Part shown: positions 18,918-44,411 of the stretch, piece by piece
Numbering within the stretch: position 1 is the first letter of the stretch
Layout of the letters: every line of letters starts with the position of its first letter
Assembly: GCA_038249055.1 (NCBI GenBank)
Contig: JBBRWS010000004.1
Coordinates: 17,939 to 81,938, forward strand
DNA length: 64,000 nt
Direction: 5' to 3'
DNA from: Minisyncoccia bacterium
GTDB lineage: Bacteria > Patescibacteriota > Minisyncoccia > Phycocordibacterales > UBA9973
Notes under the pieces: model-generated
Told to the model about the DNA's origin: nothing
Seen by the model: the letters and a program-made list of their open reading frames with translations, nothing else
The model's database searches: none
Position numbers and translations under genes: made by a program

Positions 18918-19454
18918 ATGATTAGATATGAAAGTTTTACCAGTTTTGATTTAAAAAATTCAAAACTGAGAGGGTATTTTAAATGGTGGTCAAATAAAAC
19001 CTTTAAGGAACCTCGTATGCTTAATAGAACGGTTAAATTCTTCAAGGAAAATTTAATTTTTGCTGTTTTTGCTTTCAGTGATGAAGTTCTTATAGGAGCA
19101 GCTGGACTTATTCCTTGTGTAAACAGACATAAAGAAAAAATGTTTCAGGATGAAATGCTTGTTGTTGAATTCGCTTCAAATTTTGTTGATTCCAATTTTA
19201 GAGATCAGCATATTGGGACCGAATTAGTAAACATAAGACGTTCATTTTGTATTGAAAGGAAGTTACTCGCCGTTATTGTAACTGGAAGTAGTGAAATTAA
19301 AGCCATTTTAGCTCATTATGCTGTTCCAATGAAGGGTATTAAAAAGTATTCTCATATTTACAATGAAGTTCGTATTTGCGAATGCACCGAAGAAGAGAAA
19401 TTGAATTGTAAAAATTGCCCCTTGAAAGATAAAGCAATTTGGGTGTTTGTTTAA
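18918..19454 (+). CDS. putative GNAT-family acetyltransferase
   Basis: LVVEFASNFVDSNFRDQHIGTELV resembles GNAT motif A. Weak. Confidence 0.4.
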   Translation: MIRYESFTSFDLKNSKLRGYFKWWSNKTFKEPRMLNRTVKFFKENLIFAVFAFSDEVLIGAAGLIPCVNRHKEKMFQDEMLVVEFASNFVDSNFRDQHIGTELVNIRRSFCIERKLLAVIVTGSSEIKAILAHYAVPMKGIKKYSHIYNEVRICECTEEEKLNCKNCPLKDKAIWVFV

Positions 19455-19546
19455 GGATTTTTTAATATACATTGACATTTTATTAAAATGTTGTTATTAT
19501 TTTTCATAAATAATAACGTATATTTAAATAACTTAAATCAAACTAA

Positions 19547-20095
19547 ATGGAACTTTTAGCAGAATTAATTGAAGAAAAATGCCAATTTTTAAGGAAAAGA
19601 ATTGATCATTTAGATGGAAATTATTTACTTAGTTCTCAATTTGTTACCTTTGAAAATAATATTAAAATTCAAGGTGAGCAATTGCAAATAGGTAATGTTG
19701 TTGCAAGAAGAATTAATTGGAATGAGAGGGTTAAAAATCTTATTAAATCCGGTTTTTCATCTCCCGATATTATTAATGCTCTTACTTCAAATCAGGATAA
19801 TGTGGCTGAGTCTTTTCTTATCGGAAAAATTTATCTTAATTCAAATACCAACGTAGGTGCTGAAATTGATTTAATTCGCAAGTACGTGAGAGGTATTTTA
19901 TCAAGAGAATATCTTTTATGCTTCTACACTTTATCTTTTAAAAATGATAAGTATAGATTGATGGAGGAGACTTCAGACTGGGAAAACGGGATCACACTTA
20001 TTGCAAGAAGTATATATGATTTTGAAAAAAACCCTACAAGTTTTATTAACGATCGTATCAAAAAATGGCAAACTAAAGAAAAAGAACCCTTGTGA
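19547..20095 (+). CDS. hypothetical protein
   Basis: An ORF with no recognised motifs, followed by a hairpin and T run. Confidence 0.45.
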   Translation: MELLAELIEEKCQFLRKRIDHLDGNYLLSSQFVTFENNIKIQGEQLQIGNVVARRINWNERVKNLIKSGFSSPDIINALTSNQDNVAESFLIGKIYLNSNTNVGAEIDLIRKYVRGILSREYLLCFYTLSFKNDKYRLMEETSDWENGITLIARSIYDFEKNPTSFINDRIKKWQTKEKEPL

Positions 20096-20115
20096 AAGCA
20101 AGAGGTTCTTTTTAA
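20083..20115 (+). terminator. putative terminator overlapping the stop codon of the 19547 CDS
   Basis: Stem agaacc / ggttct followed by ttttt. Confidence 0.5.
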
Positions 20116-20230
20116 TTATAATTTTCTTTACAAATTCTCTCATTTTGTTATCATATTCTCTATTACTATTATTTATCACAGGCCGAAGGTACTCTGAGTA
20201 ATCTCAAAGTGCACAAAGGCTTGGAATGAG

Positions 20231-21607
20231 ATGACTAAACGTTCAATCACTTCCAAAAAACTTTGGAAGCTGGGGATCAGTGATTTCAATACCCAATATT
20301 TTGATTTTAATAAAGATGGGGATTTAATCGCAAAAGAAGGTAATAATGTTTATAATATCCGATACTTAGCAGAAAAATTTGGAACATCACTTGAAATACT
20401 GTTTCCTTATATCGTTGAAGAAAGAGTAGAAGATCTACTTGATCTTTCTTCGTCATTAATTAAAAAATTAAAATATCAAGGTAAGTTTTTTTATCACTAT
20501 CCCATGAAGAGTAATCAGACCAAAGAAGTAGTCATGGCCATGGTTGGTGAAGGAGCAAACATTGAAACATCTTCATATAATGAACTATATATTATAAAGA
20601 AAATGTTAGAGCAACAATCTTTTAATGAAAAAATAAGAATTCTTTGTAACGGGCCAAAAACTGATAAATATATAAATCTAATAGACGAACTTCAGCACCG
20701 TGGATTAAAAATTCTACCAATTATAGAAGGACCTGGTGAATTACAAATGTTTCAATTTTCTAAGTATGATGTTGGAATAAGACTAGATATTCCCGTTAAA
20801 TCAAAGGCAAACTGGAATAAAAAAATAGACAGGTTTGGTTTTAGTAGAATAGAATTATTAAAAATGTCTCCGTTTAAGAATTTGAAAGTTTTGCATTATA
20901 GAATAGGTAAGCTTGAAAAACCGTCTGATATTATTGAATCTACAAAATATGCACTAAATGTTTATTTTAAATTAAAGGAAACGAATCCCACTTTGGATAC
21001 TATCGATATTGGAGGAGGAATGCCTATTCCATTCGAAAGAAATAAAAAATATTCTGTTGAGAAAATATTAGAGAAACTTTTTGAGCTTTTGAAAAGAGAA
21101 TCTGAAAAGAGAGGAGTACCACATCCAAATCTTATTTGTGAATGGGGACGATATATGACCGCTCCCGCACAAATTACTATTTTTAAAGTAATAGATACTA
21201 AAAAGATAGTGAATAAAGGTGTTGAAGCAAAAAAATGGTATGTTATAGATGGTAGTCTTATGAATGATTTGATAGACACATGGTCTATAAATCAAAAGTG
21301 GTTTGTATGCCCAATAAATAATAAACTAGATGGTAAGCTTAATGATGTTTGGATTGCGGGTTCTAGTTGTGATTCTGATGATATTTATACTGGAATAGAT
21401 GAATCCATCCCATTACCAGATTATGATTATGATCAGCATGAACCATTTTATGTAGTATTTTTTGATACGGGGGCTTATCAAGATGCTTTAGCATCACACC
21501 ATTGTATGCTTTCGTCTCCTATAAAAATAATTGCTGAGAATGGTCATATTGTTGTGGCTCGTAAACGCGAATCTGCTGAAGATGTTGGAAAAGAGTTTGG
21601 TTGGTAG
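20231..21607 (+). CDS. PLP-dependent arginine/ornithine decarboxylase (fold-type III, SpeA-like)
   Basis: FYHYPMKSNQTKEVV resembles the SpeA PLP-binding motif (YPVKVNQ) and TLDTIDIGGGMPI resembles the SpeA LDVGGGLG motif. Confidence 0.6.
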   Translation: MTKRSITSKKLWKLGISDFNTQYFDFNKDGDLIAKEGNNVYNIRYLAEKFGTSLEILFPYIVEERVEDLLDLSSSLIKKLKYQGKFFYHYPMKSNQTKEVVMAMVGEGANIETSSYNELYIIKKMLEQQSFNEKIRILCNGPKTDKYINLIDELQHRGLKILPIIEGPGELQMFQFSKYDVGIRLDIPVKSKANWNKKIDRFGFSRIELLKMSPFKNLKVLHYRIGKLEKPSDIIESTKYALNVYFKLKETNPTLDTIDIGGGMPIPFERNKKYSVEKILEKLFELLKRESEKRGVPHPNLICEWGRYMTAPAQITIFKVIDTKKIVNKGVEAKKWYVIDGSLMNDLIDTWSINQKWFVCPINNKLDGKLNDVWIAGSSCDSDDIYTGIDESIPLPDYDYDQHEPFYVVFFDTGAYQDALASHHCMLSSPIKIIAENGHIVVARKRESAEDVGKEFGW

Positions 21608-21669
21608 TAGAATATAATTATCAATTAATAATAATTTTAATAAAGCTACACAAATTATATTTTAAGAAA

Positions 21670-21721
21670 TCTTTTAGAGGTCCAACCTCTAACTGGCTCC
21701 GGAGGTTGTACCTCTAAAAGA
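21670..21721. repeat. 20-bp-stem palindromic hairpin (related to the element at 42996-43032)
   Basis: tcttttagaggtccaacctc ... gaggttgtacctctaaaaga. It shares the 11-mers gtccaacctct and agaggttgtac with the second hairpin. Confidence 0.6.
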
Positions 21722-21766
21722 GTGATTCAGATTTTTTTCTAAAATAATTTTATATGCTAAAAACAT

Positions 21767-22792
21767 ATGCAAAATACAAATTTACCTACTTTAGAATTTA
21801 TTCTAAAAAATTATAAAAATTTTAACGCTCGTGCCACAAAAGACTCAACATTATCATATTGGCGCCACATAGAAAAAGGTGGAAAAATGTTTTGGGCTAT
21901 GGGTGGAGCTATGTCTTCCGCTCAGCTTGGTATTACTCTTGCCCCAGCAATCAGAAATGGTTTAATACACGGTATGTCAGTTACGGGTGCTAACCTAGAG
22001 GAATCATTGTTCCGTTTAGTTGCTCACAAAAGTTATAAGGATTTTCCCGATTACAGATACTTTACAAAAGAAGATGACACTAAAATATTAAACGACCGTA
22101 TGCGCCGTGTCACAGATACAAGTATTCCTGAAGATGAAGCTTTTCGTGTTGTTGAAAAGCAGATTGTTCCTACTTGGAAAGAAGCGTCAGAAAAAGGTAC
22201 AAGAAAGTTCTGGCATGAATACTTTTATGATTTAATTCAATCTATTGATAAAGAAAAACATGAAGGTAATGCGGAGGAATGCTGGCTACTTGCTGCTGCA
22301 GAAAATAATATCCCAATAGTAGTTCCAGGTTACGAGGATTCAACTTTTGGAAACATTTTTGCTTCATATGTTAAAACAGGTGAATGTAGTGCAAATATTG
22401 CAAAATCTGGTGTTGAATATATGGGTGCTTGGTATGACCAATATCAAGAACTTTCAAAAGGAGAGGGAGTTGGTTTTTACCAAATAGGAGGAGGTATTTC
22501 AGGAGATTTCCCAATTTGCGTAGTTCCTTCTTTGAAATATGACATGCAAATTGATAATGTTAAACCATGGTCATATTTCTGCCAGATTTCAGATTCTACA
22601 ACTTCATATGGTTCTTATTCAGGTGCTACTCCAAATGAAAAAATTACTTGGGATAAACTTACAAAAGAAACACCAATGTTTGTTATTGAATCAGATGCGA
22701 CTATTGTAGTTCCTTTAGTTATCCAAGCATTACTAGAATGCAAAGCAAATCCAACTGAAGCAAATAAATTAATAGAAAAATATAGTGCATAG
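21767..22792 (+). CDS. deoxyhypusine synthase-like protein (DHS / homospermidine-synthase family)
   Basis: MGGAMSSAQLGITLAPAIRNGLIHGMSVTGANLEESLFRL matches the DHS NAD/spermidine-binding core. Its 3' end overlaps the next gene by 8 nt. Confidence 0.7.
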   Translation: MQNTNLPTLEFILKNYKNFNARATKDSTLSYWRHIEKGGKMFWAMGGAMSSAQLGITLAPAIRNGLIHGMSVTGANLEESLFRLVAHKSYKDFPDYRYFTKEDDTKILNDRMRRVTDTSIPEDEAFRVVEKQIVPTWKEASEKGTRKFWHEYFYDLIQSIDKEKHEGNAEECWLLAAAENNIPIVVPGYEDSTFGNIFASYVKTGECSANIAKSGVEYMGAWYDQYQELSKGEGVGFYQIGGGISGDFPICVVPSLKYDMQIDNVKPWSYFCQISDSTTSYGSYSGATPNEKITWDKLTKETPMFVIESDATIVVPLVIQALLECKANPTEANKLIEKYSA

Positions 22793-23861
22793 TTTGGTAA
22801 TGAATAATTCTATTGAAAATAAAAAAATATTAGAGGACAAAATTGCAAATTTTGACCCCAATGATAGTGGTGCGCTATACCACGGTATTTTTGGATTGCC
22901 TTTTAACGAGCTTGAATCAAAGGTTGTTTTAGTGCCTGTGCCATGGGAAGCTACTGTTTCCTATGGTGAAGGTACCGCTCTGGGCCCTAAAGCAATACTA
23001 GACGCCTCACAGCAGATAGATTTGTATGATTTGATTAATCCAAATGGCTGGAAAGAGGGTATTGCAATGCAAGATATTCCTTCAAGTATTTTATATAAGA
23101 GTAAACAAGTCAGAGAAAAAACTTTAAAGTACCTAGAAGGTTATAATGAAAAGAAAATCGATACAAATTTGCGAAATGAAATTAATGCTGATTGTTTAGA
23201 TCTTAAAAATTATGTAAAAGAGACTACAGAAAAATTATTAGAAGAGGGCAAAATTGTAGGAATTGTTGGGGGTGAGCATAGCGTTCCTCTTGGATATTTA
23301 GAAGCTCTTTCAAATAAATATGAGGATTTTGGAATACTACATATCGATGCACACTCTGATTTGAGAGATGCATATTTAGGATTGGAATATTCTCATGCCT
23401 CAATATTCTTTAATGCTCTAAAGATTAAAAACATTTCAAAGTTAGTTCAAGTTGGAGTTCGTGATTTTTGTGAACAAGAACATGAACTAATAGGAAAAGA
23501 AAAAAATCGCATAGCTTTATTTACAGATTATGAGATAAAAAAGGATGTTTATTGTGGTAAAACTTTAAAAGAAAAATTTGGAGAAATAATTAAAGAGCTT
23601 CCAGAAAATGTTTATATTTCTTTTGATATAGATGGCTTGATTCCTTATTTAAGTCCCAGCACAGGTACTCCTGTCATTGGTGGTTTTGCTATTGAAGAAA
23701 TGATTTTCTTATTTGAAGAATTAATTTTGTCTGGTAAAAAAATAATTGGCTTTGATTTATGTGAAGTAGCCCAAGGGGATAATGAATGGGATGGAAATGT
23801 GGGTGCTAGAGTTTTATATAAACTTTGTTTACTAACATTAAAGAGTCAAGAAAATAAGTAA
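22785..23861 (+). CDS. speB: agmatinase / ureohydrolase (arginase family)
   Basis: GGEHSV, HIDAHSDL and SFDIDGL are the Mn-binding ureohydrolase motifs. Confidence 0.8.
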   Translation: MHSLVMNNSIENKKILEDKIANFDPNDSGALYHGIFGLPFNELESKVVLVPVPWEATVSYGEGTALGPKAILDASQQIDLYDLINPNGWKEGIAMQDIPSSILYKSKQVREKTLKYLEGYNEKKIDTNLRNEINADCLDLKNYVKETTEKLLEEGKIVGIVGGEHSVPLGYLEALSNKYEDFGILHIDAHSDLRDAYLGLEYSHASIFFNALKIKNISKLVQVGVRDFCEQEHELIGKEKNRIALFTDYEIKKDVYCGKTLKEKFGEIIKELPENVYISFDIDGLIPYLSPSTGTPVIGGFAIEEMIFLFEELILSGKKIIGFDLCEVAQGDNEWDGNVGARVLYKLCLLTLKSQENK

Positions 23862-23871
23862 TATTTAATCT

Positions 23872-23897
23872 AAAAACACCCAATATTGGGTGTTTTT
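23872..23897. terminator. bidirectional terminator between convergent genes
   Basis: aaaaacacccaatattgggtgttttt. Confidence 0.85.
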
Positions 23898-23913
23898 AGA
23901 TATTTCATATTAC

Positions 23914-24837
23914 TTAACTATTCAATATTTTTATAAAATCCCTAGTAAACATTTTTTTATTAATTTTAGTAACTAGGTTTATGTTACAATTTTTATCACC
24001 ATAGGTTCTTTTTTCCATCACAGTCATACCTCTTGTATATTCTCCCTTTGTTTCAATTCTAATATCAGCCTTAATTAAAGAATATGCACTTGGGTTAATC
24101 AAGTAGTATCCAGCTAAAGCGTCATAAACTAAAGCGCCTTTTATTTTCTCAAAATTATTTATTCCTTCGATAAATTTTTTCATCATTGATATAATTGGTC
24201 TATATAGATTTCCTTTTTTAAGGCATTCAAAATCTTTCATAGTTAAAACTATTTTATTACATACATCGAGAGGAACTAGAATAATTTTTGCACCTGAATT
24301 AAAGACAATTTCAGCAGCCTCTGGATCGACAAAAATATTAAATTCAGCAGTTCTATTTTTATTTCCTGGACAATCAATCGCTCCACCCATAATAATAAAT
24401 TCCTTAACCAGTTTTGGTAAATTAGGTTCTTTTATTATAGCCTTTGCAATATTTGTTTCCGGGCCAATTACAACAATAGAAGTCCGACCCGGATTAGTCT
24501 TAATTATCTCGATTATCTTATCGACAGCTAGACCGTTTAGGGGCTCTTCTTTGGCTATTGTGGCCCCATCTAGACCGCTTTCACCGTGAACATTAGCCAA
24601 TATTAAGTCTCTACTTAAGGGTTTTTCAGACCCAGAATATATAGGTATTCCACCATCAACTAAATCAATTATATATCTTGCATTATCGGTAACATTTTTT
24701 AATGTTGAATTTCCGGCCACTGTGGCAATAGCTTTAATATCAACAACGCCAGACTTTTGTAATAGTAGAATAGCCAAGGCATCATCATGACCTGGATCAG
24801 TATCTATTATAATTTGTTTTTTTATATATTTTTTCAT
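23914..24837 (-). CDS. nucleoside hydrolase (inosine-uridine-preferring (IU-NH) family)
   Basis: IIIDTDPGHDDALAI is the hallmark Asp cluster. Confidence 0.85.
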   Translation of the reverse strand: MKKYIKKQIIIDTDPGHDDALAILLLQKSGVVDIKAIATVAGNSTLKNVTDNARYIIDLVDGGIPIYSGSEKPLSRDLILANVHGESGLDGATIAKEEPLNGLAVDKIIEIIKTNPGRTSIVVIGPETNIAKAIIKEPNLPKLVKEFIIMGGAIDCPGNKNRTAEFNIFVDPEAAEIVFNSGAKIILVPLDVCNKIVLTMKDFECLKKGNLYRPIISMMKKFIEGINNFEKIKGALVYDALAGYYLINPSAYSLIKADIRIETKGEYTRGMTVMEKRTYGDKNCNINLVTKINKKMFTRDFIKILNS

Positions 24838-24853
24838 AAATTTATTTAATATA

Positions 24854-25528
24854 TTAATTTATAATTTTTTCCAAACTTAAACTTTTATATAGTTCCTCGA
24901 TATTTTTTATTGTTTTATATTCATTATTTTCTAAATCAGTAATATATATAACATTTAACCCCGCTTCAATGGCTGGAAGTATATCTGAACCAAGAGAATC
25001 TCCAATCATAACAACTTCATCTGGATTAACTGAATATTTTACACAAATATCCTCATATATTTGTTTACTACCACCTTTAGGCATTTGACCTCCTTTTTCC
25101 CAAGCGATGATAAAATCAAAATTATTTTCATCGACATCTATAGCCTTTAAAATTTTTAAAGCTTGGATTGTAGGCCCATCTGTAATAGCACCCACAATAA
25201 AGCCTAATTTTTTTAGATTTTTTAATAATTCATTTGAATAAAGAATTACACTTAAATATTCTTCTGGATTAAGTGACAGTATCGCATCATACCAAACCCC
25301 AATATCTAATCCCGATAATTCAAAACTATATTCACCACGACCATTATATTTACGACGACAATCATCTGCTATTTTTTTACCTTCTTGTAATGATATATTT
25401 AATTCTCTGGCCAAAGTGCTCTCAAGTGTTCTTGAATACTGCGAATAAAATAATTTCGCTTTTTCGCCATATGAAAGGGTATTATCTATATCAAACAATA
25501 CTATTTTGATTTTATTTTTATTTATCAT
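24854..25528 (-). CDS. HAD-superfamily hydrolase (subfamily IA-like)
   Basis: Motif I LFDIDNTL and motif IV GDSLGSDI. Confidence 0.75.
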   Translation of the reverse strand: MINKNKIKIVLFDIDNTLSYGEKAKLFYSQYSRTLESTLARELNISLQEGKKIADDCRRKYNGRGEYSFELSGLDIGVWYDAILSLNPEEYLSVILYSNELLKNLKKLGFIVGAITDGPTIQALKILKAIDVDENNFDFIIAWEKGGQMPKGGSKQIYEDICVKYSVNPDEVVMIGDSLGSDILPAIEAGLNVIYITDLENNEYKTIKNIEELYKSLSLEKIIN

Positions 25529-26492: not shown

Positions 26493-27608
26493 ATGGACGT
26501 AAAAAGCTTACTTAAAGAAAAAGCATACCAAAACATTCCATTAAGTTTTGAAGAAGCTTATGAACTAGCAGCTTATACAATTGAGGGATGCAATGGTAAT
26601 GACCTTGCACAAATTCAATCAGTTGCTGTACTCTGTGCGTTGCATAATAAAGCAACATATCTTCACAAAGATGCATATCTTCAGATTGCTGGCATTTCTG
26701 CCGGAATCATTGATTTTGATATTAAAAAATCAATAAACGGATTTGCAAAACCAAAAGTTCCATATGTTGTTGATAACTGTGGAATGGGAGGAGATCACTT
26801 TGTAACTGCTAATGTTTCTACTTTAGCTGGATTAACTGCTGCATCTCTTGGTGTATACGTGTGTAAACATGGATCACCCGCAAATGCAGATAAGGGCAGA
26901 CAAGGAAGTTCAGATTTCATAAATTTTTGTGGAATACCAAACATCTTGCCTAAAAATGATATTGAAAGGATGATTGAATCTCATAGATTTGGTTATATTG
27001 AGGCTTTGGATACTAATTTTAAAGTTGTTCATCAGCAGACGCATAATTTTGCTCATCTGCCACATATGAATGACCTTATTGGCCCATTAACTCATCCTAT
27101 TGATCCTGTGCTTCTAAAGTATAAAATCATAGGGATTAATCATCTTGTACCAGTTGAAGTTGTAGTCAAGGCATTAAAAGTATTAAACGAAAAAGGATAT
27201 ACTTTTTTTGAAAAAGCTATGGCCGTTAGAGGAAGTGTTGGGTCTACAAATCAAGATGGAATTGATGAATTATCAATTACAAAATGGGGAACAACAGTTT
27301 CTGAATTATCTGAAAATGGTATTAGATCTTATTCTATCAATTCTGATGATTTCGGTATTAATCCAGTAGATAAATCATTTTTGACTCCGCCAAATGGTAT
27401 GAGTAAGGCTGATTTTTCGTTAAGTATTCTCAACAACGAGTCACCAAAAGAAAGTATTTATATGATTGCAGCAAGCAGTGCACTTATATTACAAATGGTT
27501 GGTGAAGTTAAAACTTTGAAAGAAGGATTTAATGTATCTTACGAACAGATTCGTTCTGGAAAAGTTGTTTCGTATTTATCAGATTTGAAAAATAGTATTG
27601 TTATTTAA
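26493..27608 (+). CDS. TrpD-like glycosyltransferase-family-3 protein (anthranilate phosphoribosyltransferase homolog), paralog 1
   Basis: DNCGMGGDHFVTANVSTLAGLTAASLGVYVCKHGSPANADKGRQGSSDF matches TrpD GTGGD...KHGNR...GSAD. Confidence 0.7.
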   Translation: MDVKSLLKEKAYQNIPLSFEEAYELAAYTIEGCNGNDLAQIQSVAVLCALHNKATYLHKDAYLQIAGISAGIIDFDIKKSINGFAKPKVPYVVDNCGMGGDHFVTANVSTLAGLTAASLGVYVCKHGSPANADKGRQGSSDFINFCGIPNILPKNDIERMIESHRFGYIEALDTNFKVVHQQTHNFAHLPHMNDLIGPLTHPIDPVLLKYKIIGINHLVPVEVVVKALKVLNEKGYTFFEKAMAVRGSVGSTNQDGIDELSITKWGTTVSELSENGIRSYSINSDDFGINPVDKSFLTPPNGMSKADFSLSILNNESPKESIYMIAASSALILQMVGEVKTLKEGFNVSYEQIRSGKVVSYLSDLKNSIVI

Positions 27609-27689: not shown

Positions 27690-28508
27690 ATGCCTACTAA
27701 ATTTAATTTTAATAAAAAAAATAATATCTTAATAGGGGCAGTGCACTTGCCTCCACTTCTTGGGTATCCAGATTTTCCTGGTTTTGAAATAGCACTTAGA
27801 AATGCAAAAACCGATTTAGAAACATTTCAAAAAGCTGGATTTGATGCAGTTATTATCGAAAACAATTATGATATTCCTCATTTTGAAAATGTTAACCCAT
27901 CTATAGGAATTTCTATGAGTATTTTGTGTTATCAATTAAAACAAATAGCAACAATACCCATAGGAATAAGTGTATTGTGGAATGATTATAAAACCGCACT
28001 TTCTATTGCAAAAACTATAGGGGCGGATTTTATTAGAATTCCTGTTTTTGTAGATACCGTTGAAACAAGTTACGGTGTTATTAAAGGTAACTCAAAAGAG
28101 GTTATTGATTTTAGAAAAAGTATAGACGCAGAAAATATTTTAATTTATACTGATATACACGTAAAACACGCGAAATTACTTTCTTCCTATTCTTTAATTG
28201 AATCAGCGACAAAGGCTATATCTGAGGGTAGTGATGGTCTAATAATAACCGGTAAATGGACAGGTGAACAACCTTCAATGGAAGACCTAAGGTCGGTTCG
28301 TGAATCTGTTGGCGATTTTCCAATTATTGCTGGAAGCGGTGTTGATAATAAAAATATTAAAGAAATATTTTCTTATGCGAACAGTTGCATTGTAAGTACT
28401 TCAGTAAAAGAAGGCATAAATAACAATAAAGAAATAAATATAAAAAACTATTCACAAAGAATTAACTTAGAAGAATGTATAAAATTAGTAAAAACAGTCA
28501 ACAATTAA
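27690..28508 (+). CDS. BtpA/SgcQ-family TIM-barrel protein
   Basis: LIGAVHLPPLLGYPDF...DAVIIENNYDIP matches the BtpA N-terminal signature. Confidence 0.65.
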   Translation: MPTKFNFNKKNNILIGAVHLPPLLGYPDFPGFEIALRNAKTDLETFQKAGFDAVIIENNYDIPHFENVNPSIGISMSILCYQLKQIATIPIGISVLWNDYKTALSIAKTIGADFIRIPVFVDTVETSYGVIKGNSKEVIDFRKSIDAENILIYTDIHVKHAKLLSSYSLIESATKAISEGSDGLIITGKWTGEQPSMEDLRSVRESVGDFPIIAGSGVDNKNIKEIFSYANSCIVSTSVKEGINNNKEINIKNYSQRINLEECIKLVKTVNN

Positions 28509-28852: not shown

Positions 28853-29953
28853 TCATGAAGTAATAATATCAGAGATTAATAAGTCGATTATTTTCTTATT
28901 TACATGTTGCATTACAACAATATGAGCTCTATCATTTTTTGTAGCAAGTTGCCACTTATTAATGATATTTTTTGATGGCTTATCAAAAGTTACAATATTT
29001 GAATTAATATTTAACTTAGGATTATAATGTATATCCATAAGCATCTTTTCCAAATATTTTGCATTTTCAATACATTCGATAGCTTCTTTTTTGAATCCGA
29101 TAATTCCCTTATTGTTTATTAATGCCCACAAAAATACTGCGAGCTGGCCATTTCTGGAGCCTGAGATAGTTGTATCGTCTGAGTCTATATATTCTATACA
29201 GTCGACAAAACTACCATGCGGTTTTTCTTTTGAAAGAAAAACACCAGAAGGAAAGGGGATACCAAAAAATTTATGAGCTGAGAGAGAAATACTATTAATA
29301 GGTTTATTAAAATTTAATTCATGTTCAATGCCTAAAAAGGGAAGAAACCCTCCAAATAAGGCTGCATCACAGTGAATATAAAAATTTTCATGTGATGTTT
29401 CTTTGAGTATGGATAAAACTTTATCAACATCATCAATAGCTCCATCAAAAGTAGTTCCTATAGTTAAATTAAGAATAGGAATTTTTCTTTCCTTGGATAA
29501 GAGATCATAAAGGTTTTCATAATTCATTTCACCATTTGATGATTCAACTTCCGCATATGGAACATTAAGAATAACTGAATTTTTCTTAATTGAATAATGC
29601 CCATCTGCTGAGTAAATTACTCCATCTGGATACTTGTTTCTTCCAAGAAGAAGCCCCATCAAATTACTTTCTGTTCCACCATTCGTAAGGTATCCCCACG
29701 AATTTTGGTCAAGGTTATAAATTCCTTTAAAGAATTCGAGCACTTTTTGCTCATATTCTTTTGAGTGCATTCTGTACGAACCATCCGTACAGCTTGGATC
29801 ACCTACATTGTTAATAACAAAATCAAAGAATTTATAAAATTCTGAAAAATCATTATTAAGATTACCAGGAAAACCTAGCATAAATGGAGCACTAGATTGC
29901 AGTCGCCAGTAAAACTGGCGCATTTCATCAGTCAACGTTATTAAAGCTTTCAT
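28853..29953 (-). CDS. PLP-dependent histidine decarboxylase-family (group II) decarboxylase
   Basis: SWGYLTNGGTESNLMGLLLGR and PLP-Lys context ISLSAHKFFGIPFPSGVFL. Close to bacterial HdcA (about 378 aa). Confidence 0.75.
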   Translation of the reverse strand: MKALITLTDEMRQFYWRLQSSAPFMLGFPGNLNNDFSEFYKFFDFVINNVGDPSCTDGSYRMHSKEYEQKVLEFFKGIYNLDQNSWGYLTNGGTESNLMGLLLGRNKYPDGVIYSADGHYSIKKNSVILNVPYAEVESSNGEMNYENLYDLLSKERKIPILNLTIGTTFDGAIDDVDKVLSILKETSHENFYIHCDAALFGGFLPFLGIEHELNFNKPINSISLSAHKFFGIPFPSGVFLSKEKPHGSFVDCIEYIDSDDTTISGSRNGQLAVFLWALINNKGIIGFKKEAIECIENAKYLEKMLMDIHYNPKLNINSNIVTFDKPSKNIINKWQLATKNDRAHIVVMQHVNKKIIDLLISDIITS

Positions 29954-30407: not shown

Positions 30408-31616
30408 ATGGAAATCAATATTACTTTATCGGATGAGGAATTAAAAGAAATAGCTTTAAAGCAGAATAAATCGATTGAGGAGGTTGCGAATGATTATAAG
30501 CACATGATAAAAGATTTAGGTTATTCAAATAAAAAACTTAACGAAATAATCGAGAACTCCGCCTATATCAGGTTTCCTAATAATTTTTTACTACACGGAT
30601 ACGGTAAAAACAACGAGCTTAACTCAAAATACTTATGCTATGATAATTTAGATATTTTTAATGAAATTCCAAAAACCGAGTTAGCTATAGTTACAGGATT
30701 CGGTCCTACTAATTCTCCAACCGCTGGTACGCTGTGTTCAATTTTTAGAGTACTTGAACTTCAAAAACTAACTGGAATTTATACTCATATAATTATTTCA
30801 GAATTAAGTGCATTAAATTCAAGACAAAAGCCATTAAATGAACTAATAAAAAATTCTCATCAGTTTATATCATTTATTAAAAAATTAGGCTTTGATGAGA
30901 AAAATGGTGAGATTAGAACACACAACCACCATGATCATTCTCGGGTATTTTCACTTGTTTCTAGTGTTTTAAGTATTAGTGATTTGCTCGAAAAAATAGA
31001 AGTCACCAATGATACGTATAAAAGACTGCAATTACTTGGAAACGATTTCTCAAAAATGGTGAGCAGAACATATACAATGACAGACATTATATTACCAATA
31101 GTACGTGATAAAAAACGAGGAGTAATAGTTCCATTAGGATTGGAAGAACACCACCATCCTCATTTAGCGAGAATAGCACTAAATAGAATGAAACTAAAAA
31201 TAGGAGGTCTGGATAGTTTAGTTAAACACGACGCTGAAATTGGAGCATTACACGGGAAGCTTATTAGCGGTTTCTTTCCTTATGTTAAAATGTCAAAAAG
31301 TATTCCTGATTCTTCAATAAATCTAGGAGATAGTGAAGAAGAATTACATAAAAAAATAATAGAATGCGGGATAAGAAATGAAGAGGTTATTTTACAAATG
31401 ATGATACTTGCTTCCAATTGGAGTCCTGATAGATTAAATGAGGCAAAAAGTGCCTTTGAAAATTTAACAATAGATTACAAGCGATGGGAAAAGATAAAAT
31501 ATGACTATTTAAAGTTTTTTACTGAAATTAAAACTCTTTGGGAGGAGTCAAAATATGATAAAGAAATTAATACACACGAAGAGCTATTTTCAAATATAGG
31601 GGACACGGAAAAATAA
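30408..31616 (+). CDS. divergent tryptophanyl-tRNA-synthetase-like class I aaRS paralog (402 aa, N-terminal extension)
   Basis: Degenerate HIGH region TGFGPTNSPTAGTL (compare TrpRS TGxxPSGxxTIGN). KMSKS is intact (YVKMSKSIPDS). Confidence 0.55.
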   Translation: MEINITLSDEELKEIALKQNKSIEEVANDYKHMIKDLGYSNKKLNEIIENSAYIRFPNNFLLHGYGKNNELNSKYLCYDNLDIFNEIPKTELAIVTGFGPTNSPTAGTLCSIFRVLELQKLTGIYTHIIISELSALNSRQKPLNELIKNSHQFISFIKKLGFDEKNGEIRTHNHHDHSRVFSLVSSVLSISDLLEKIEVTNDTYKRLQLLGNDFSKMVSRTYTMTDIILPIVRDKKRGVIVPLGLEEHHHPHLARIALNRMKLKIGGLDSLVKHDAEIGALHGKLISGFFPYVKMSKSIPDSSINLGDSEEELHKKIIECGIRNEEVILQMMILASNWSPDRLNEAKSAFENLTIDYKRWEKIKYDYLKFFTEIKTLWEESKYDKEINTHEELFSNIGDTEK

Positions 31617-31678: not shown

Positions 31679-32686
31679 TTAATTTTCTTCAAAACCCATG
31701 GCTTTTTCAACTCTTTGGATAACCTCATTGGCATTTGCGCGAGCAATAGAGATGCCTTTTTTCAAAACTTCAGCCACTTGTTCATCTGAAATTTGTGTGC
31801 GTCTCTTTTGAAAAGAAGTAGTGAACTCAATGATAATATCAGCAACAAGTGTTTTGAATTTACCCATCACTTTCTCACCATTGAGATGTTGTTCAATAAG
31901 CGCATTAACTTCGCCTAATCTTTCTGGAGCGATAGCTTTTACAATAGCAACAAGATTGTCGAGCTTTTCACTTGTTTGCCCTTCGATGGCAGTCTCAGCT
32001 CTTTTCATTTTCTTTCTGATGTCTTCTGGACTATCATTAAGAAAAATTGCTCCTTCTGGTTTACTCTTGCTCATTTTTCCATCCCCAGTTAGTGACAAAA
32101 TGTTTACTGGTTCGTCGATGTTCATGGTTTCTGGACGGACAACAATTTTTCCGCCATTGCCATACTTGTTATTAAAAGCGTCAGCAAGTTCGCGAGCAAC
32201 TTCCATATGAGAAAATTGATCTTTTCCTACTGGAACCAACTGAGCATCCTGCAAGAGAATATCAGCTGCCATCATAATTGGATATGCCATAAGGAGGACG
32301 GTTGCTTGTTCTGGATTTTGTCCATCTTTTAATTTTTCCTTCAAAGTTGGCACGCGAGTCGCACGAGAAACAGTAATATGACGCTCGAGATAAAGTTTGA
32401 GCAAGGCAACCTCTTTGCGGAGACCACGTTGGTCAAAGATAACTATTTTCGATGGGTCTAATCCCAAAGCAATATAGTCCTTCACGATATCGCCTACTTT
32501 TAACTGTTCGGGTTCATGATCTGTTAGACCATGTAGAGTTGCAACGAAAACTAAAATTTCGCTTGATTCATTCAGCTTCTGCAATTCCAACAAAGGAAAT
32601 GTAGCACCAATCAAATTAGCGATAGTCAGGGTTGCAGTAGGTCTGATTCCTGTCAAAATTCTTTTCTTTGATTCTATTTTTTCCAT
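31679..32686 (-). CDS. trpS: tryptophanyl-tRNA synthetase
   Basis: RILTGIRPTATLTIANLIGA (a TIGN-type HIGH variant, as in Bacillus TrpRS) and KMSKSKPEGAIFL. Confidence 0.85.
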   Translation of the reverse strand: MEKIESKKRILTGIRPTATLTIANLIGATFPLLELQKLNESSEILVFVATLHGLTDHEPEQLKVGDIVKDYIALGLDPSKIVIFDQRGLRKEVALLKLYLERHITVSRATRVPTLKEKLKDGQNPEQATVLLMAYPIMMAADILLQDAQLVPVGKDQFSHMEVARELADAFNNKYGNGGKIVVRPETMNIDEPVNILSLTGDGKMSKSKPEGAIFLNDSPEDIRKKMKRAETAIEGQTSEKLDNLVAIVKAIAPERLGEVNALIEQHLNGEKVMGKFKTLVADIIIEFTTSFQKRRTQISDEQVAEVLKKGISIARANANEVIQRVEKAMGFEEN

Positions 32687-32883
32687 GGTTATATTTTTTA
32701 ATGAATTTATAGTGAATTATATCATTTTATGAGAAAATGTCAATGCTATAAATCTGATTAATTCTAATAATATCAGTATAGTTTTTTACTTTAAAATAAG
32801 CAAACTCAAATGTATCGTTATAATACAATTTATTGACACTTAATCTATTCATTGATATAATATTGTTTACTAAATTAAATATT

Positions 32884-34008
32884 ATGTATAATACTTTTTT
32901 AAGTGATAAAAATATTAGAGAACCGTACGAAACATTTTACAAACTGAATATTGGTTTATCGATTGATGAGTTTGAAGCACAAAACGCTATGCTGGAAATC
33001 TTTAATGAAAAAGACTTACAGAAAAAAACATATCTATTGACAATGTTACTAAATGGAATAATGATTAAGGGTCCTTCTGTGTCTGAGGTAAAAGGTTTAA
33101 TTAATGCTTCTTTATCCTTAGATGGTATACAAAAAAAACAAAAAATTACATTACCAAATAATGAATTGTTGGTTGGCGTAGCTGGTAGTGGAAAAAAGGG
33201 TTTTAAAACTATAAACATAACTACACCTGCTAGTTTTGTTGCTGCTGCCTGTGGTGCATATGTTGCAAAAGCGTGTTCTCATTCGACGTCGTCAAAAACA
33301 GGTTCCTCCGATTTTTTAGAATTAGTAGGTATTAATATAGATATTCCTTTTGTGGAAAAAGTAGAAATTTTGAAAAAGAAGAAAATTTCTTTTTTTTCAA
33401 TTGAGGATACTACTCCAAAATTTGCGGATGTTTATGGGGGTATATTTCATGCACCGCATGCAATGAGTTTTGCTTTGGCTGGGCTTAGCTTTCCGATACA
33501 AATTGATACTCTTGTGTATGGTTTATCACATCCTAATATTAAATTGTCTTTAGAGGTATATAAAGAATATGGTTTTAAAAATGTTTTAGTCTACTCATCT
33601 AGTGAGGATGGGGTACATTTTTTAGACGAACTCTCCATATCCGGGCGTGTAAATATCATTGGTATGAAAAATTATAAAGTTGGACAAACAGTATCAGCTA
33701 ACATAATAGATGAGTTTCCTTTTTTCTCAAATAGTAATTTAAAAGAATTAGCAGAAAAGGAATATCCAATTGATAACGTGAAATGTTCTCTAAAGGTACT
33801 TAATGGTACAGGTCTAAAAAGTCATATTGAAACTATATGTCTTAATGCGGCACCAATTATTCTTGCGGCTGGAAAAGTCAATTCATTAAAAGAGGGATAT
33901 TTGTTGGCAAAGAAAAATATTGAAAATGGAGAAGTATTTAAATTATTTTTAGAAGTTGTTGAATTGTATGGAGGAGATAGAAATAAAATATATAATATAA
34001 TTGACTGA
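32884..34008 (+). CDS. TrpD-like glycosyltransferase-family-3 protein, paralog 2 (degenerate GTGGD); the ORF could begin at 32833
   Basis: VGVAGSGKKGFKTINITTPASFVAAACGAYVAKACSHSTSSKTGSSDFLELVGI. Confidence 0.6.
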   Translation: MYNTFLSDKNIREPYETFYKLNIGLSIDEFEAQNAMLEIFNEKDLQKKTYLLTMLLNGIMIKGPSVSEVKGLINASLSLDGIQKKQKITLPNNELLVGVAGSGKKGFKTINITTPASFVAAACGAYVAKACSHSTSSKTGSSDFLELVGINIDIPFVEKVEILKKKKISFFSIEDTTPKFADVYGGIFHAPHAMSFALAGLSFPIQIDTLVYGLSHPNIKLSLEVYKEYGFKNVLVYSSSEDGVHFLDELSISGRVNIIGMKNYKVGQTVSANIIDEFPFFSNSNLKELAEKEYPIDNVKCSLKVLNGTGLKSHIETICLNAAPIILAAGKVNSLKEGYLLAKKNIENGEVFKLFLEVVELYGGDRNKIYNIID

Positions 34009-42964: not shown

Positions 42965-42987
42965 TTACGAATTAATAATTAAGAATT

Positions 42988-43040
42988 AAAAAAAATAGAG
43001 GTTGTACGTCTAAGGAAGACGTCCAACCTCTATTTTTTTT
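42988..43040. terminator. bidirectional terminator (A8, 15-bp stem, T8) between the histidine kinase gene and convergent cysS
   Basis: tagaggttgtacgtc taaggaa gacgtccaacctcta. Related to the hairpin at 21670. Confidence 0.85.
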
Positions 43041-43046
43041 ATCTAT

Positions 43047-44411
43047 TTATATTTTAGAAATTACTGAACCAGCATCAGTATCTTTTATTTCATATCCCAA
43101 AGAATTTATTTTTTTTCTTAGCTCGTCACTTTTTGCCCAATCTTTTTCTATGCGAACTTTTTCACGCTCTGTAACTAATTCCTTTATATCATCGGGAATT
43201 ATGATTTCTGTTTCTTTTTTTATTTTATCTAAACCAAACCCAAAAACTTTATCAAAATCTAAAATGGTTGCTTTTTTATCTATATCAGAAAGGGAAGTGT
43301 CTTTCAATAATTCCCAGACAAGAGCCAAGGCTTTAGGACTTTCAAGGTTATTGTCTAAATACTCCACAAAACGTGATTTATAAGTAGTATTTATCGTTCC
43401 AGTATCACTTCCAAGGGCTAAAAATGCCTCTCTGAGCCTTTCTAATGCAGTTTGAGCCCCACTTACTGCTTCTAAAGTAAAGTTTGTTCTAGTGGTATAG
43501 CTTGAAGTGTATAGCCAATATCTAAAAGCAATAGGATCAATATTTTTATTTATTAAATCTTGTAATGTATAAAAATTACCAAGCGACTTACTCATTTTTT
43601 GTCCGTCTACAAGCAAATGCTCGTTGTGCATAAAATATTTTGCAAAGCTTCTACCAGTAGCACATTCTGACTGTGCTATTTCATTTTCATGGTGAGGAAA
43701 AATATTATCTACTCCTCCAGTGTGAATATCAAAACTTTCACCAAGTTCACTCATACTCATAGCAGAACATTCTATATGCCAACCTGGGCGTCCTTTGCCT
43801 AAATCGGTTTCCCAAAATACTTCGCCATCAGTTTCATCCCATGCTTTCCAAAGAGCAAAATCTTGAGCGTTTTCTTTTTCATATTCATCTTTTTTGAGTC
43901 GGTTGTCAGCATTTTCTTTTAAATCCGAAAGATTGAAGTGAGATAGTTTACCGTACTCTTTATCCTTATGAATATCAAAGTATACAGAGCCATCACTTGT
44001 TTTATATGCAAAACCTTTTTTCTCTAATTCCTGAATAAGAGTGACCATTTGATGTATATAATCAGTTGCTTTGGTATAGATATCTGCTGGAACAATATTT
44101 AAAGCATCTCTATCTTTAAAGAATTCTTCTGTGTAAAATTCAGTAAGCTCCTTTAGGGATTTATTCTGAGCTTGGACTTCACGGATTATTTTATCTTCAA
44201 CATCAGTTATATTCATGACGTGTTTAACGCTATAACCACTATATTTTAAGTATCTTTTAAGTAAATCAGCAAAAATATATGCACGCCAATTACCTATATG
44301 AAGATGATTGTAAACAGTTGGACCACATGTATACAAACCAACACTACCATAAAGGTTTGGTTCAAAAGCTTCTTTTTTTCTACTAAGTGTATTAAATATG
44401 ATTAAAGACAT
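43047..44411 (-). CDS. cysS: cysteinyl-tRNA synthetase
   Basis: GPTVYNHLHIGN and KMSKSLGNF. Confidence 0.95.
   Translation of the reverse strand: MSLIIFNTLSRKKEAFEPNLYGSVGLYTCGPTVYNHLHIGNWRAYIFADLLKRYLKYSGYSVKHVMNITDVEDKIIREVQAQNKSLKELTEFYTEEFFKDRDALNIVPADIYTKATDYIHQMVTLIQELEKKGFAYKTSDGSVYFDIHKDKEYGKLSHFNLSDLKENADNRLKKDEYEKENAQDFALWKAWDETDGEVFWETDLGKGRPGWHIECSAMSMSELGESFDIHTGGVDNIFPHHENEIAQSECATGRSFAKYFMHNEHLLVDGQKMSKSLGNFYTLQDLINKNIDPIAFRYWLYTSSYTTRTNFTLEAVSGAQTALERLREAFLALGSDTGTINTTYKSRFVEYLDNNLESPKALALVWELLKDTSLSDIDKKATILDFDKVFGFGLDKIKKETEIIIPDDIKELVTEREKVRIEKDWAKSDELRKKINSLGYEIKDTDAGSVISKI

Follow-up and report, generated by a model that had tools for sequence, protein, structure and literature searches.

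The DNA analysed here, a stretch of 64,000 nucleotides (nt) from the genome of a Minisyncoccia bacterium (contig JBBRWS010000004.1, positions 17,939 to 81,938 of the forward strand; hereafter called the window), carries beside dnaK-dnaJ a three-gene operon which in all likelihood serves to make homospermidine by the agmatine/SpeY route. The pathway as such is already published (2024, 2026), and the window provides a Patescibacteria example of a known route. Its marker genes are bacterial (RpoA with the alpha C-terminal domain, S4, S9, GrpE-DnaK-DnaJ and MnmA), its GC content is about 30%, and locus comparison identifies Candidatus Nomurabacteria/Paceibacterota as the closest relatives. In agreement with the original prediction, which had been made from the DNA letters alone and described three co-directional genes, the list of open reading frames with their translations places all three on the plus strand:

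20231..21607, plus strand: gene 1, a compact alanine-racemase-fold, pyridoxal phosphate (PLP)-dependent decarboxylase, predicted to be an arginine decarboxylase (ADC); identified by Pfam, NCBIfam and PDB matches
21767..22792, plus strand: gene 2, a protein of the deoxyhypusine synthase (DHS) family; identified by Pfam PF01916, the fold of its AlphaFold2 (AF2) model, residue alignment and context
22785 (GTG) or 22800 (ATG)..23861, plus strand: gene 3, an arginase-fold, agmatinase-like ureohydrolase, predicted to act on bis(guanidino)homospermidine; identified by Pfam PF00491

The assignment of the module draws on family-level identities of the genes, intact catalytic motifs, conserved synteny, and ties of the DHS-like genes to three types of ADC and to ureohydrolases.

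In the proposed route, whose substrates, diagmatine intermediate and ureohydrolase specificity are taken over from characterised homologs, L-arginine would be converted to agmatine by the compact PLP decarboxylase. The DHS-family enzyme with its bound NAD+ would then oxidise one agmatine under release of ammonia, hold the resulting 4-guanidinobutylidene group as an imine on Lys297, and hand this group on to a second agmatine at its primary amine; the NADH made earlier would then reduce the product. The product of this second step would be N1,N9-bis(guanidino)homospermidine (G44G, diagmatine, also caldomycin), from which the Mn-dependent ureohydrolase would strip both guanidino groups as urea to yield sym-homospermidine. 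Hereby, the ureohydrolase most likely acts after coupling, on bis(guanidino)homospermidine, and the order of the genes would thus be the order of the pathway. Site residues, synteny and the SpeY/CdmS literature support the earlier expectation of an agmatine-based transfer that serves homospermidine synthesis rather than hypusination. What had been called an aminobutyl transfer keeps its agmatine basis, yet the transferred group would, by analogy with SpeY/CdmS, be 4-guanidinobutyl. The catalytic activity presumed for the clade of gene 2 itself follows from the same analogy.

Precedents for the route come from two studies. According to Kobayashi et al. 2024, the DHS homolog CdmS of Thermus joins two agmatines, and SpeB then gives homospermidine (PMC10981699). 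Li et al. 2026 report seven SpeY homologs from diverse phyla, all of which produce G44G ("diagmatine"); SpeY is found together with ADCs of three unrelated folds, and the SpeB homologs linked to SpeY cleave G44G but not agmatine (PMC13625781). The Winogradskyella cluster tested in the same work consists of a short "ancestral" alanine-racemase-fold ADC, SpeB and SpeY (PMC13625781). The window operon resembles the SpeY/CdmS pathway of Thermus thermophilus and Winogradskyella algicola in that the same three enzyme families are clustered (PMC10981699, PMC13625781). It differs in its host, Patescibacteria being unmentioned for SpeY in either paper (PMC10981699, PMC13625781).

The central element of this comparison is the 341-residue product of gene 2. 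It matches the Pfam family DS (PF01916) with an E value of 2.5e-36 over residues 18-321 and includes the peptide MGGAMSSAQLGITLAPAIRNGLIHGMSVTGANLEE, by which the original prediction had marked it as a DHS-family protein. Its AF2 model (pLDDT 87) has DHS structures as top PDB fold matches throughout (8PUT, 1DHS and 7CMC; TM 0.68-0.78), at a sequence identity of 15-21% to eukaryotic and archaeal deoxyhypusine synthase (EC 2.5.1.46). For residue mapping we used a human DHS reference sequence that had been checked against the PDB. The catalytic lysine, which the original prediction had singled out as the residue to be verified, is present: K297, in the motif ITWDKL, aligns with human K329 (SWGK in human and archaeal DHS) and is invariant in all alignments. 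Also retained are E291, W295, D191, E79 and D310, corresponding to human E323, W327, D238, E137 and D342, respectively. Four further positions are changed, namely D243 to N196, D316 to Y284, D313 to Y281 and H288 to D247. As a result, the canonical spermidine-binding set of DHS (D243, H288, D316) reads N196, D247 and Y284 in the window protein, and among the acidic residues of the NAD site E79, D191 and D310 are conserved, with Y281 at the position of human D313. The pattern at the substrate site corresponds to that of SpeY/CdmS, where the catalytic lysine is likewise kept and non-acidic residues stand at the positions of D243 and D316: N196 and Y284 match F204 and L286 of CdmS, the same two positions at which CdmS differs from DHS. 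Unlike eukaryotic and archaeal DHS, moreover, the window protein belongs to a bacterial host without eIF5A, and its gene is clustered with genes for an ADC and a ureohydrolase.

Gene 1 encodes a protein of 458 residues with the Pfam domains Orn_Arg_deC_N (PF02784) and Orn_DAP_Arg_deC (PF00278). Together with its top NCBIfam models, both of them speA (169 bits against a cutoff of 369 and 150 bits against a cutoff of 624, both cutoffs being missed), this bears out the SpeA-like, fold-III PLP decarboxylase that had been predicted. The lysA equivalog, which matches over the full length, scores 113 bits, and on the identity of the decarboxylase, a further point raised at the outset, the gene 1 product thus resembles ADC more than LysA (169 vs 113 bits). 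The best PDB matches are the biosynthetic ADCs 3N2O and 3NZQ, which align in two blocks and share with gene 1 the motifs YPMKSNQ (containing the PLP lysine), DIGGGMP, EWGR, CDSD and GAYQ. An insert of about 100 residues in 3N2O (365-467, a four-helix bundle) is without counterpart in the gene 1 product. Since the two-block alignment skips this insert, the gene 1 product is a short form, which fits the 'ancestral' short ADC described in PMC13625781. The lack of the four-helix bundle is shared with the compact ADC of the Winogradskyella cluster, which also resembles the window operon in having a SpeB-like ureohydrolase. From its context, the gene 1 product is probably specific for L-arginine.

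Gene 3, 358 codons long when read from 22785, encodes a protein matching the Pfam family Arginase (PF00491) with 171 bits. Its Mn-ligand motifs GGEHS, DAHSD and SFDIDG as well as the Glu of CEV are intact, as judged by alignment to the best PDB matches, the agmatine ureohydrolase 3PZL and the guanidinobutyrase 3NIO. The protein had been predicted to be an agmatinase. The arginase fold and the intact Mn ligands agree with this, but the score of 153.3 bits against the agmatinase model TIGR01230 is below the cutoff of 174.3 (the orthologue in locus L001 reaches 164.7), and action after coupling is the most likely role. To our knowledge, no sequence signature has been published for a diagmatine ureohydrolase (DUH), i.e. 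an enzyme which cleaves G44G but not agmatine. The reported 8-nt overlap of genes 2 and 3 depends on the start codon. It holds for GTG at 22785 and disappears if translation starts at the in-frame ATG at 22800, 7 nt past the DHS stop codon TAG (22790-22792), which is an equally possible start. In the nearest relatives, co-directional orthologues of gene 3 are 69-83% identical.

To place the operon among its relatives we scanned species-representative genomes, which gave 80 loci, 45 of them from Patescibacteria (many truncated) and 35 from other phyla; since this split was assigned by hand from record titles and GC content, the counts are approximate. The neighbourhood, which the original prediction had proposed to inspect in relatives, proved conserved: among the Patescibacteria loci, the DHS-like gene is preceded by an ADC gene in 38 of 45 and has a gene for an arginase-fold ureohydrolase close by in 33 of 45. 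A frequent gene order is DnaK-DnaJ-(GNAT)-ADC-DHS, and the ADCs of these loci are about 68-72% identical among close Patescibacteria relatives. The ureohydrolase occurs in two forms. The first, found in the window, is long (about 350 residues), co-directional and under the agmatinase cutoff. The second (about 297 residues, 28-32% identical) is standard agmatinase-like, encoded convergently downstream, and passes TIGR01230 at 222 bits; examples are found in loci L021 (3754-4647) and L018 (7146-7898). In L021 (2303-4647), a SpeD-type gene (AdoMet_dc, 97 bits) takes the place of the ADC gene directly 5' of an 85%-identical DHS-like gene, with the ureohydrolase gene downstream. The SpeY literature describes exchanges of this kind, in which one agmatine-producing enzyme takes the position of another.

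SpeD-type genes of 128-151 codons replace the alanine-racemase-fold ADC near the DHS-like gene in some Paceibacterota (L021, 2303-4647; L012, 3314-7017). In L012, the SpeD-type gene stands beside genes for an S-adenosylhomocysteine hydrolase and a PfkB kinase, and its product may therefore be a true AdoMet decarboxylase.

Beyond the Patescibacteria, gene 2 belongs to a broad subfamily, which we term GDF-type after its motif. Searched exhaustively, a set of 1.84 billion cluster representatives yielded 1362 relatives, the closest full-length ones at 35-49% identity. The subfamily is marked by the motifs GGGI[A/S]GDFPICVVP (GGGVVKHH in DHS) and SDSTTSYGSYSGAxPNEKITWxKL, located at residues 241-254 and 275-298 of the window protein. 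Named members come from DPANN archaea, marine group II Euryarchaeota, Omnitrophica, Zixibacteria, Gemmatimonadota and many Bacteroidota, and the databases call them just 'deoxyhypusine synthase family protein'. Several sisters (35-55% identical) are joined, by fusion or overlapping genes, to enzymes of the presumed pathway. Three are fusion proteins (P0123, P0130 and P0124), comprising two SpeD-DHS fusions, hosted by marine Euryarchaeota and Pseudomonadota, and one triple fusion of 756 residues that combines SpeD, an NNMT/PNMT-like methyltransferase and DHS. In two further cases, the start of the sister gene is overlapped by another gene, which is a fused pyruvoyl-ADC+arginase gene for P0126 and a plain arginase gene for P0175 (L081, 3601-5948; L084, 4126-5969). 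A metagenome-assembled genome (MAG) of the Flavobacteriales carries a 464-codon Orn_Arg_deC_N gene directly 5' of a DHS-like gene whose product is 55% identical to that of the window. This is the same ADC-SpeY layout as in the Winogradskyella cluster, and the Flavobacteriales and window ADCs are colinear at 29% identity. Judging from Flavobacteriales taxonomy and synteny, the tested Winogradskyella SpeY is very probably itself a member of the GDF subfamily. The branch as a whole is large, strongly conserved and poorly annotated, and it merits an annotation model of its own.

The DHS-like protein is 76-80% identical over its full length to its counterparts in Myxococcota, Planctomycetota, Bdellovibrionota, Sericytochromatia and Acidobacteriota (loci L033-L080). 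Carriers of the near-identical protein include Isosphaeraceae and Myxococcota. Sym-homospermidine is the polyamine of Planctomycetes such as Isosphaera (PMC4334474), and Myxococcus makes homospermidine lipids (PMC9548883). The Sericytochromatia loci were also considered as a possible connection to the SpeY tested from that group; the gene order there is GT2-GNAT-DHS, with neither SpeB nor SpeD, and lends no support to this idea. A tblastn search of plasmids for SpeY returned haloarchaeal DHS as the sole matches. The GDF-type DHS homologs of DPANN archaea stand alone in their loci (L088, 4001-4972, from Micrarchaeota; P0302, P0393 and P0415).

Several observations weigh against the assignment of the operon to the agmatine/SpeY route. 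Firstly, the Lys287-His288 pair of DHS is replaced by an invariant Gly-Asp, and the alignments contain no His in the segment that leads from the GGG motif of the gene 2 product to the following strand. CdmS, by contrast, is described as DHS-like at this position, its site residues being otherwise those of human DHS (PMC10981699). As a conjecture, Asp247 may act as replacement base for His288. Secondly, the gene 2 product and ten scanned sisters fall below every NCBIfam DHS/SpeY equivalog cutoff (98-128 bits vs 300-500). Hereby, the window protein scores 77-91 bits against the DHS equivalogs (cutoffs 304-434), 58.5 bits against NF002699 (cutoff 500) and 97.9 bits against NF001980, the model of a homospermidine biosynthesis protein (cutoff 450). 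Thirdly, the link to a biochemically tested SpeY rests on taxonomy and synteny. Fourthly, the protein is unusually strongly conserved for a small-molecule enzyme, with a median identity of 79% between Patescibacteria and other phyla and 160 of 333 columns invariant among 80 sequences. Recent horizontal transfer as the source of this high identity can be ruled out, since the GC content at third codon positions (GC3) of the DHS-like gene ranges from 28% to 100% and tracks that of each host (about 28-40% in Patescibacteria); the identity thus reflects long-term purifying selection. A Bacteroidota-centred sister subclade is similarly conserved, with 76-81% identity among several orders, extending to Riflebacteria and Kapabacteria. 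High conservation is therefore a trait of the enzyme type and not the mark of a clade-specific function. Finally, in the 35 loci outside the Patescibacteria the near-identical gene stands alone, with no polyamine genes within 4 kb; candidates for conserved neighbours in these loci turned out to be shadow open reading frames and a short-chain dehydrogenase/reductase (SDR) gene (6 loci) only.

The alternative that survives best, although we regard it as improbable, is a putrescine-first route, in which the ADC and a true agmatinase would produce putrescine, and the DHS-like enzyme would join two putrescines, or putrescine and agmatine, in the manner of the non-homologous bacterial homospermidine synthase (HSS, EC 2.5.1.44). 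The closeness of gene 3 to the agmatinase equivalog cutoff (153 vs 174 bits) speaks for such a route, as does the passing of this cutoff by the alternative ureohydrolase of other Patescibacteria loci; furthermore, E. coli agmatinase acts on both agmatine and G44G, and the order of steps is thus not fixed by sequence alone (PMC13625781). Yet every tested SpeY made G44G and required SpeB for the formation of homospermidine, and the same authors argue that SpeY would be left short of substrate next to a true agmatinase and that the two routes exclude each other (PMC13625781). In addition, the Asp residues by which DHS holds the amino groups of spermidine or putrescine are N and Y in the gene 2 product. 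HSS itself has the same end product as the proposed route and shares the chemistry of NAD as prosthetic group, but differs in its non-homologous fold and its dependence on putrescine, needs no ureohydrolase and forms no G44G (PMC13625781). The classical SpeA-SpeB pathway to putrescine resembles the operon in combining an arginine decarboxylase with an arginase-fold ureohydrolase. It has no equivalent of the DHS-family gene, the best conserved of the cluster, that lies between the two in the window, and the window ureohydrolase is under the agmatinase cutoff.

We attach still less weight to a role in protein modification, in which a guanidinobutyl group would be transferred from agmatine to a protein lysine, e.g. 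at the tip of elongation factor P (EF-P), and trimmed to deoxyhypusine by the ureohydrolase. The same trio of ADC, DHS homolog and agmatinase-like protein, with agmatine as likely donor, has been proposed for deoxyhypusine formation on aIF5A in Haloferax volcanii (PMC5178350). There the target is an archaeal protein, while the window trio has no linked target gene and the bacterial precedents act on small molecules. The extreme conservation between Patescibacteria and high-GC phyla despite the wide range of GC3, the solitary position of the DHS-like gene in non-Patescibacteria genomes, and the fact that about half of the bacterial EF-P types are without known modification (PMC13602936) would all suit a protein target. 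On the other hand, a scan of the window and all 86 related loci found no efp gene, hypusine has never been found in bacteria (PMC2821294), and the tested bacterial SpeYs are small-molecule enzymes (PMC13625781). Moreover, sisters of gene 2 form fusions or coupled pairs with ADC and ureohydrolase domains, as would be expected in a metabolic module, Flavobacteriales with a cluster of the tested type belong to the similarly conserved subclade, and the carrier taxa are known homospermidine producers (PMC9548883, PMC4334474). A combined function, in which the GDF-type DHS homolog would be a diagmatine synthase and in addition use agmatine for guanidinobutylation of a lysine in a conserved protein (e.g. 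EF-P), later trimmed to deoxyhypusine by the ureohydrolase, seems equally improbable. If modification of the EF-P type were true, it would be the first hypusine-like modification in bacteria. Least credible of all is a chance adjacency, in which gene 1, as a diaminopimelate or ornithine/lysine decarboxylase, would have nothing to do with genes 2 and 3: although the lysA equivalog covers all of gene 1 (113 bits), PDB diaminopimelate decarboxylases align end to end (1TWI) and all ADC equivalog cutoffs are missed, ADC models and structures outscore those of LysA, the pair of genes 1 and 2 is kept in 38 of 45 Patescibacteria loci and recurs in Flavobacteriales, and in L021 a SpeD-type decarboxylase occupies the place of gene 1.

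The genomes of Patescibacteria are very small, and most biosynthetic pathways are absent from them. If the homospermidine reading of the operon is correct, a complete and conserved arginine-to-homospermidine module is located by dnaK-dnaJ, implying that the triamine is made by the cell itself and not derived from a host; homospermidine would then be the working polyamine of Patescibacteria. The agmatine/SpeY route would thereby be extended to another large lineage, with a modest conceptual gain.

Four non-coding elements accompany the genes of the operon:

20127..20154, plus strand: promoter-like TTTACA-16 nt-TATCAT with the TG of an extended -10 element, 5' of the decarboxylase gene (10/12 in a consensus scan)
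20179..20223, plus strand: stem-loop of the 5' untranslated region (5'-UTR), in which CAGGCC...GGCUUG closes an inner hairpin, just 5' of the ribosome-binding-site region of gene 1 (RNAfold)
21670..21721, plus strand: long hairpin within the 159 nt that separate genes 1 and 2 (folding and repeat search)
23868..23901, no strand assigned: perfect palindrome with 17-nt arms and flanking A/T runs, located where the ureohydrolase and nucleoside-hydrolase genes converge (terminator scan)

Genes 1-3 probably form a single transcription unit, bounded by the promoter-like site (20127-20154) on the 5' side and by the terminator (23868-23901) on the 3' side. In a comparison of about 25 related loci, TTTACA...TGnTAT(n)AT was found equally placed 5' of the ADC gene in most Patescibacteria relatives, and the element at 20127-20154 would be a promoter as judged from its sequence. 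The arms of the palindrome at 23868-23901 are 100% complementary in a repeat search, and the terminator scan reports 15 pairs followed by a T-rich tail; the palindrome is likely a bidirectional terminator that closes the operon.

The leader of gene 1 folds at -23.0 kcal/mol (RNAfold). Relatives have a hairpin of variable length, closed by CAGGC/GCYUG, directly before the AAAGAG-ATG region (e.g. CAGACG/CGUCUG in L011), and a longer, two-tier variant of the leader is seen in the window, L006, L015 and L034. A consensus fold of this long form was only weakly supported by RNAalifold, with four sequences and a poor alignment. The 5'-UTR hairpin could be a leader with a role in stability or regulation. 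Scanned with Rfam at gathering cutoffs, the whole window gave one tRNA and nothing else; an E-value search of 19400-24000 yielded only noise, and a known RNA or riboswitch in leader or spacer was discarded as a candidate.

The hairpin with a 20-base-pair stem that had been described between genes 1 and 2 was recovered at 21670-21721. It consists of 12 + 8 base pairs with one C/U mismatch and a 10-nt loop, and a T-run (21732-21738) follows about 10 nt further on. The spacer folds at -34.9 kcal/mol (z = -4.2 vs shuffles). A sequence search of the window found no second copy of the arms, and the notion of a repeated element was dropped. The spacer element (window 21640-21766) recurs in L002, L015 and L027 with conserved A/T-rich arms (AAATTATATTCTGAAAAAA / TTTTTTCATAAAATAATTT) around a variable GC-rich core, is inverted in L018, and is absent from the many relatives in which ADC and DHS-like genes are only 30-50 nt apart. 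Functionally, the hairpin would be an attenuator or an element of mRNA stability or processing. Since it is variable or inverted in some relatives and absent from those with short spacers, it looks like an optional palindromic, terminator-like or stabilising element and not like an essential regulator of the pathway. Elsewhere in the window, an unrelated terminator-like palindrome between convergent genes (42978-43050) shares its words (AGAGGTTGTAC / GTCCAACCTCT) with the operon hairpin, including the C/T mismatch, which suggests that this genome contains a family of such palindromes.

Between dnaJ and the operon lie two further open reading frames. One (18918-19454, 178 codons) is weakly GNAT-like and has homologs in four relatives; the other (19547-20095, 182 codons) has no family match. 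A role of the GNAT protein as polyamine acetyltransferase is conceivable. In two Sericytochromatia MAGs a different GNAT gene lies directly 5' of the DHS-like gene (L051, 991-1425; L061, 71-502). The window and Sericytochromatia GNAT proteins are without sequence similarity, and the idea of a shared GNAT partner was abandoned.

Downstream of the operon, genes for a nucleoside hydrolase and a HAD hydrolase occupy 23914-25528, the nucleoside-hydrolase gene being convergent to the operon. They are followed by genes at 26493-27608, 27690-28508, 28853-29953 and 32833-34008, which comprise two paralogous Glycos_transf_3 genes (nucleoside / AMP phosphorylase-like), a BtpA-family gene and a gene for a group-II PLP decarboxylase (Pyridoxal_deC). 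In the same region, the divergent genes at 30408-31616 and 31679-32686 both match class-I Trp/Tyr tRNA synthetase (PF00579), the first of them weakly (39 bits).

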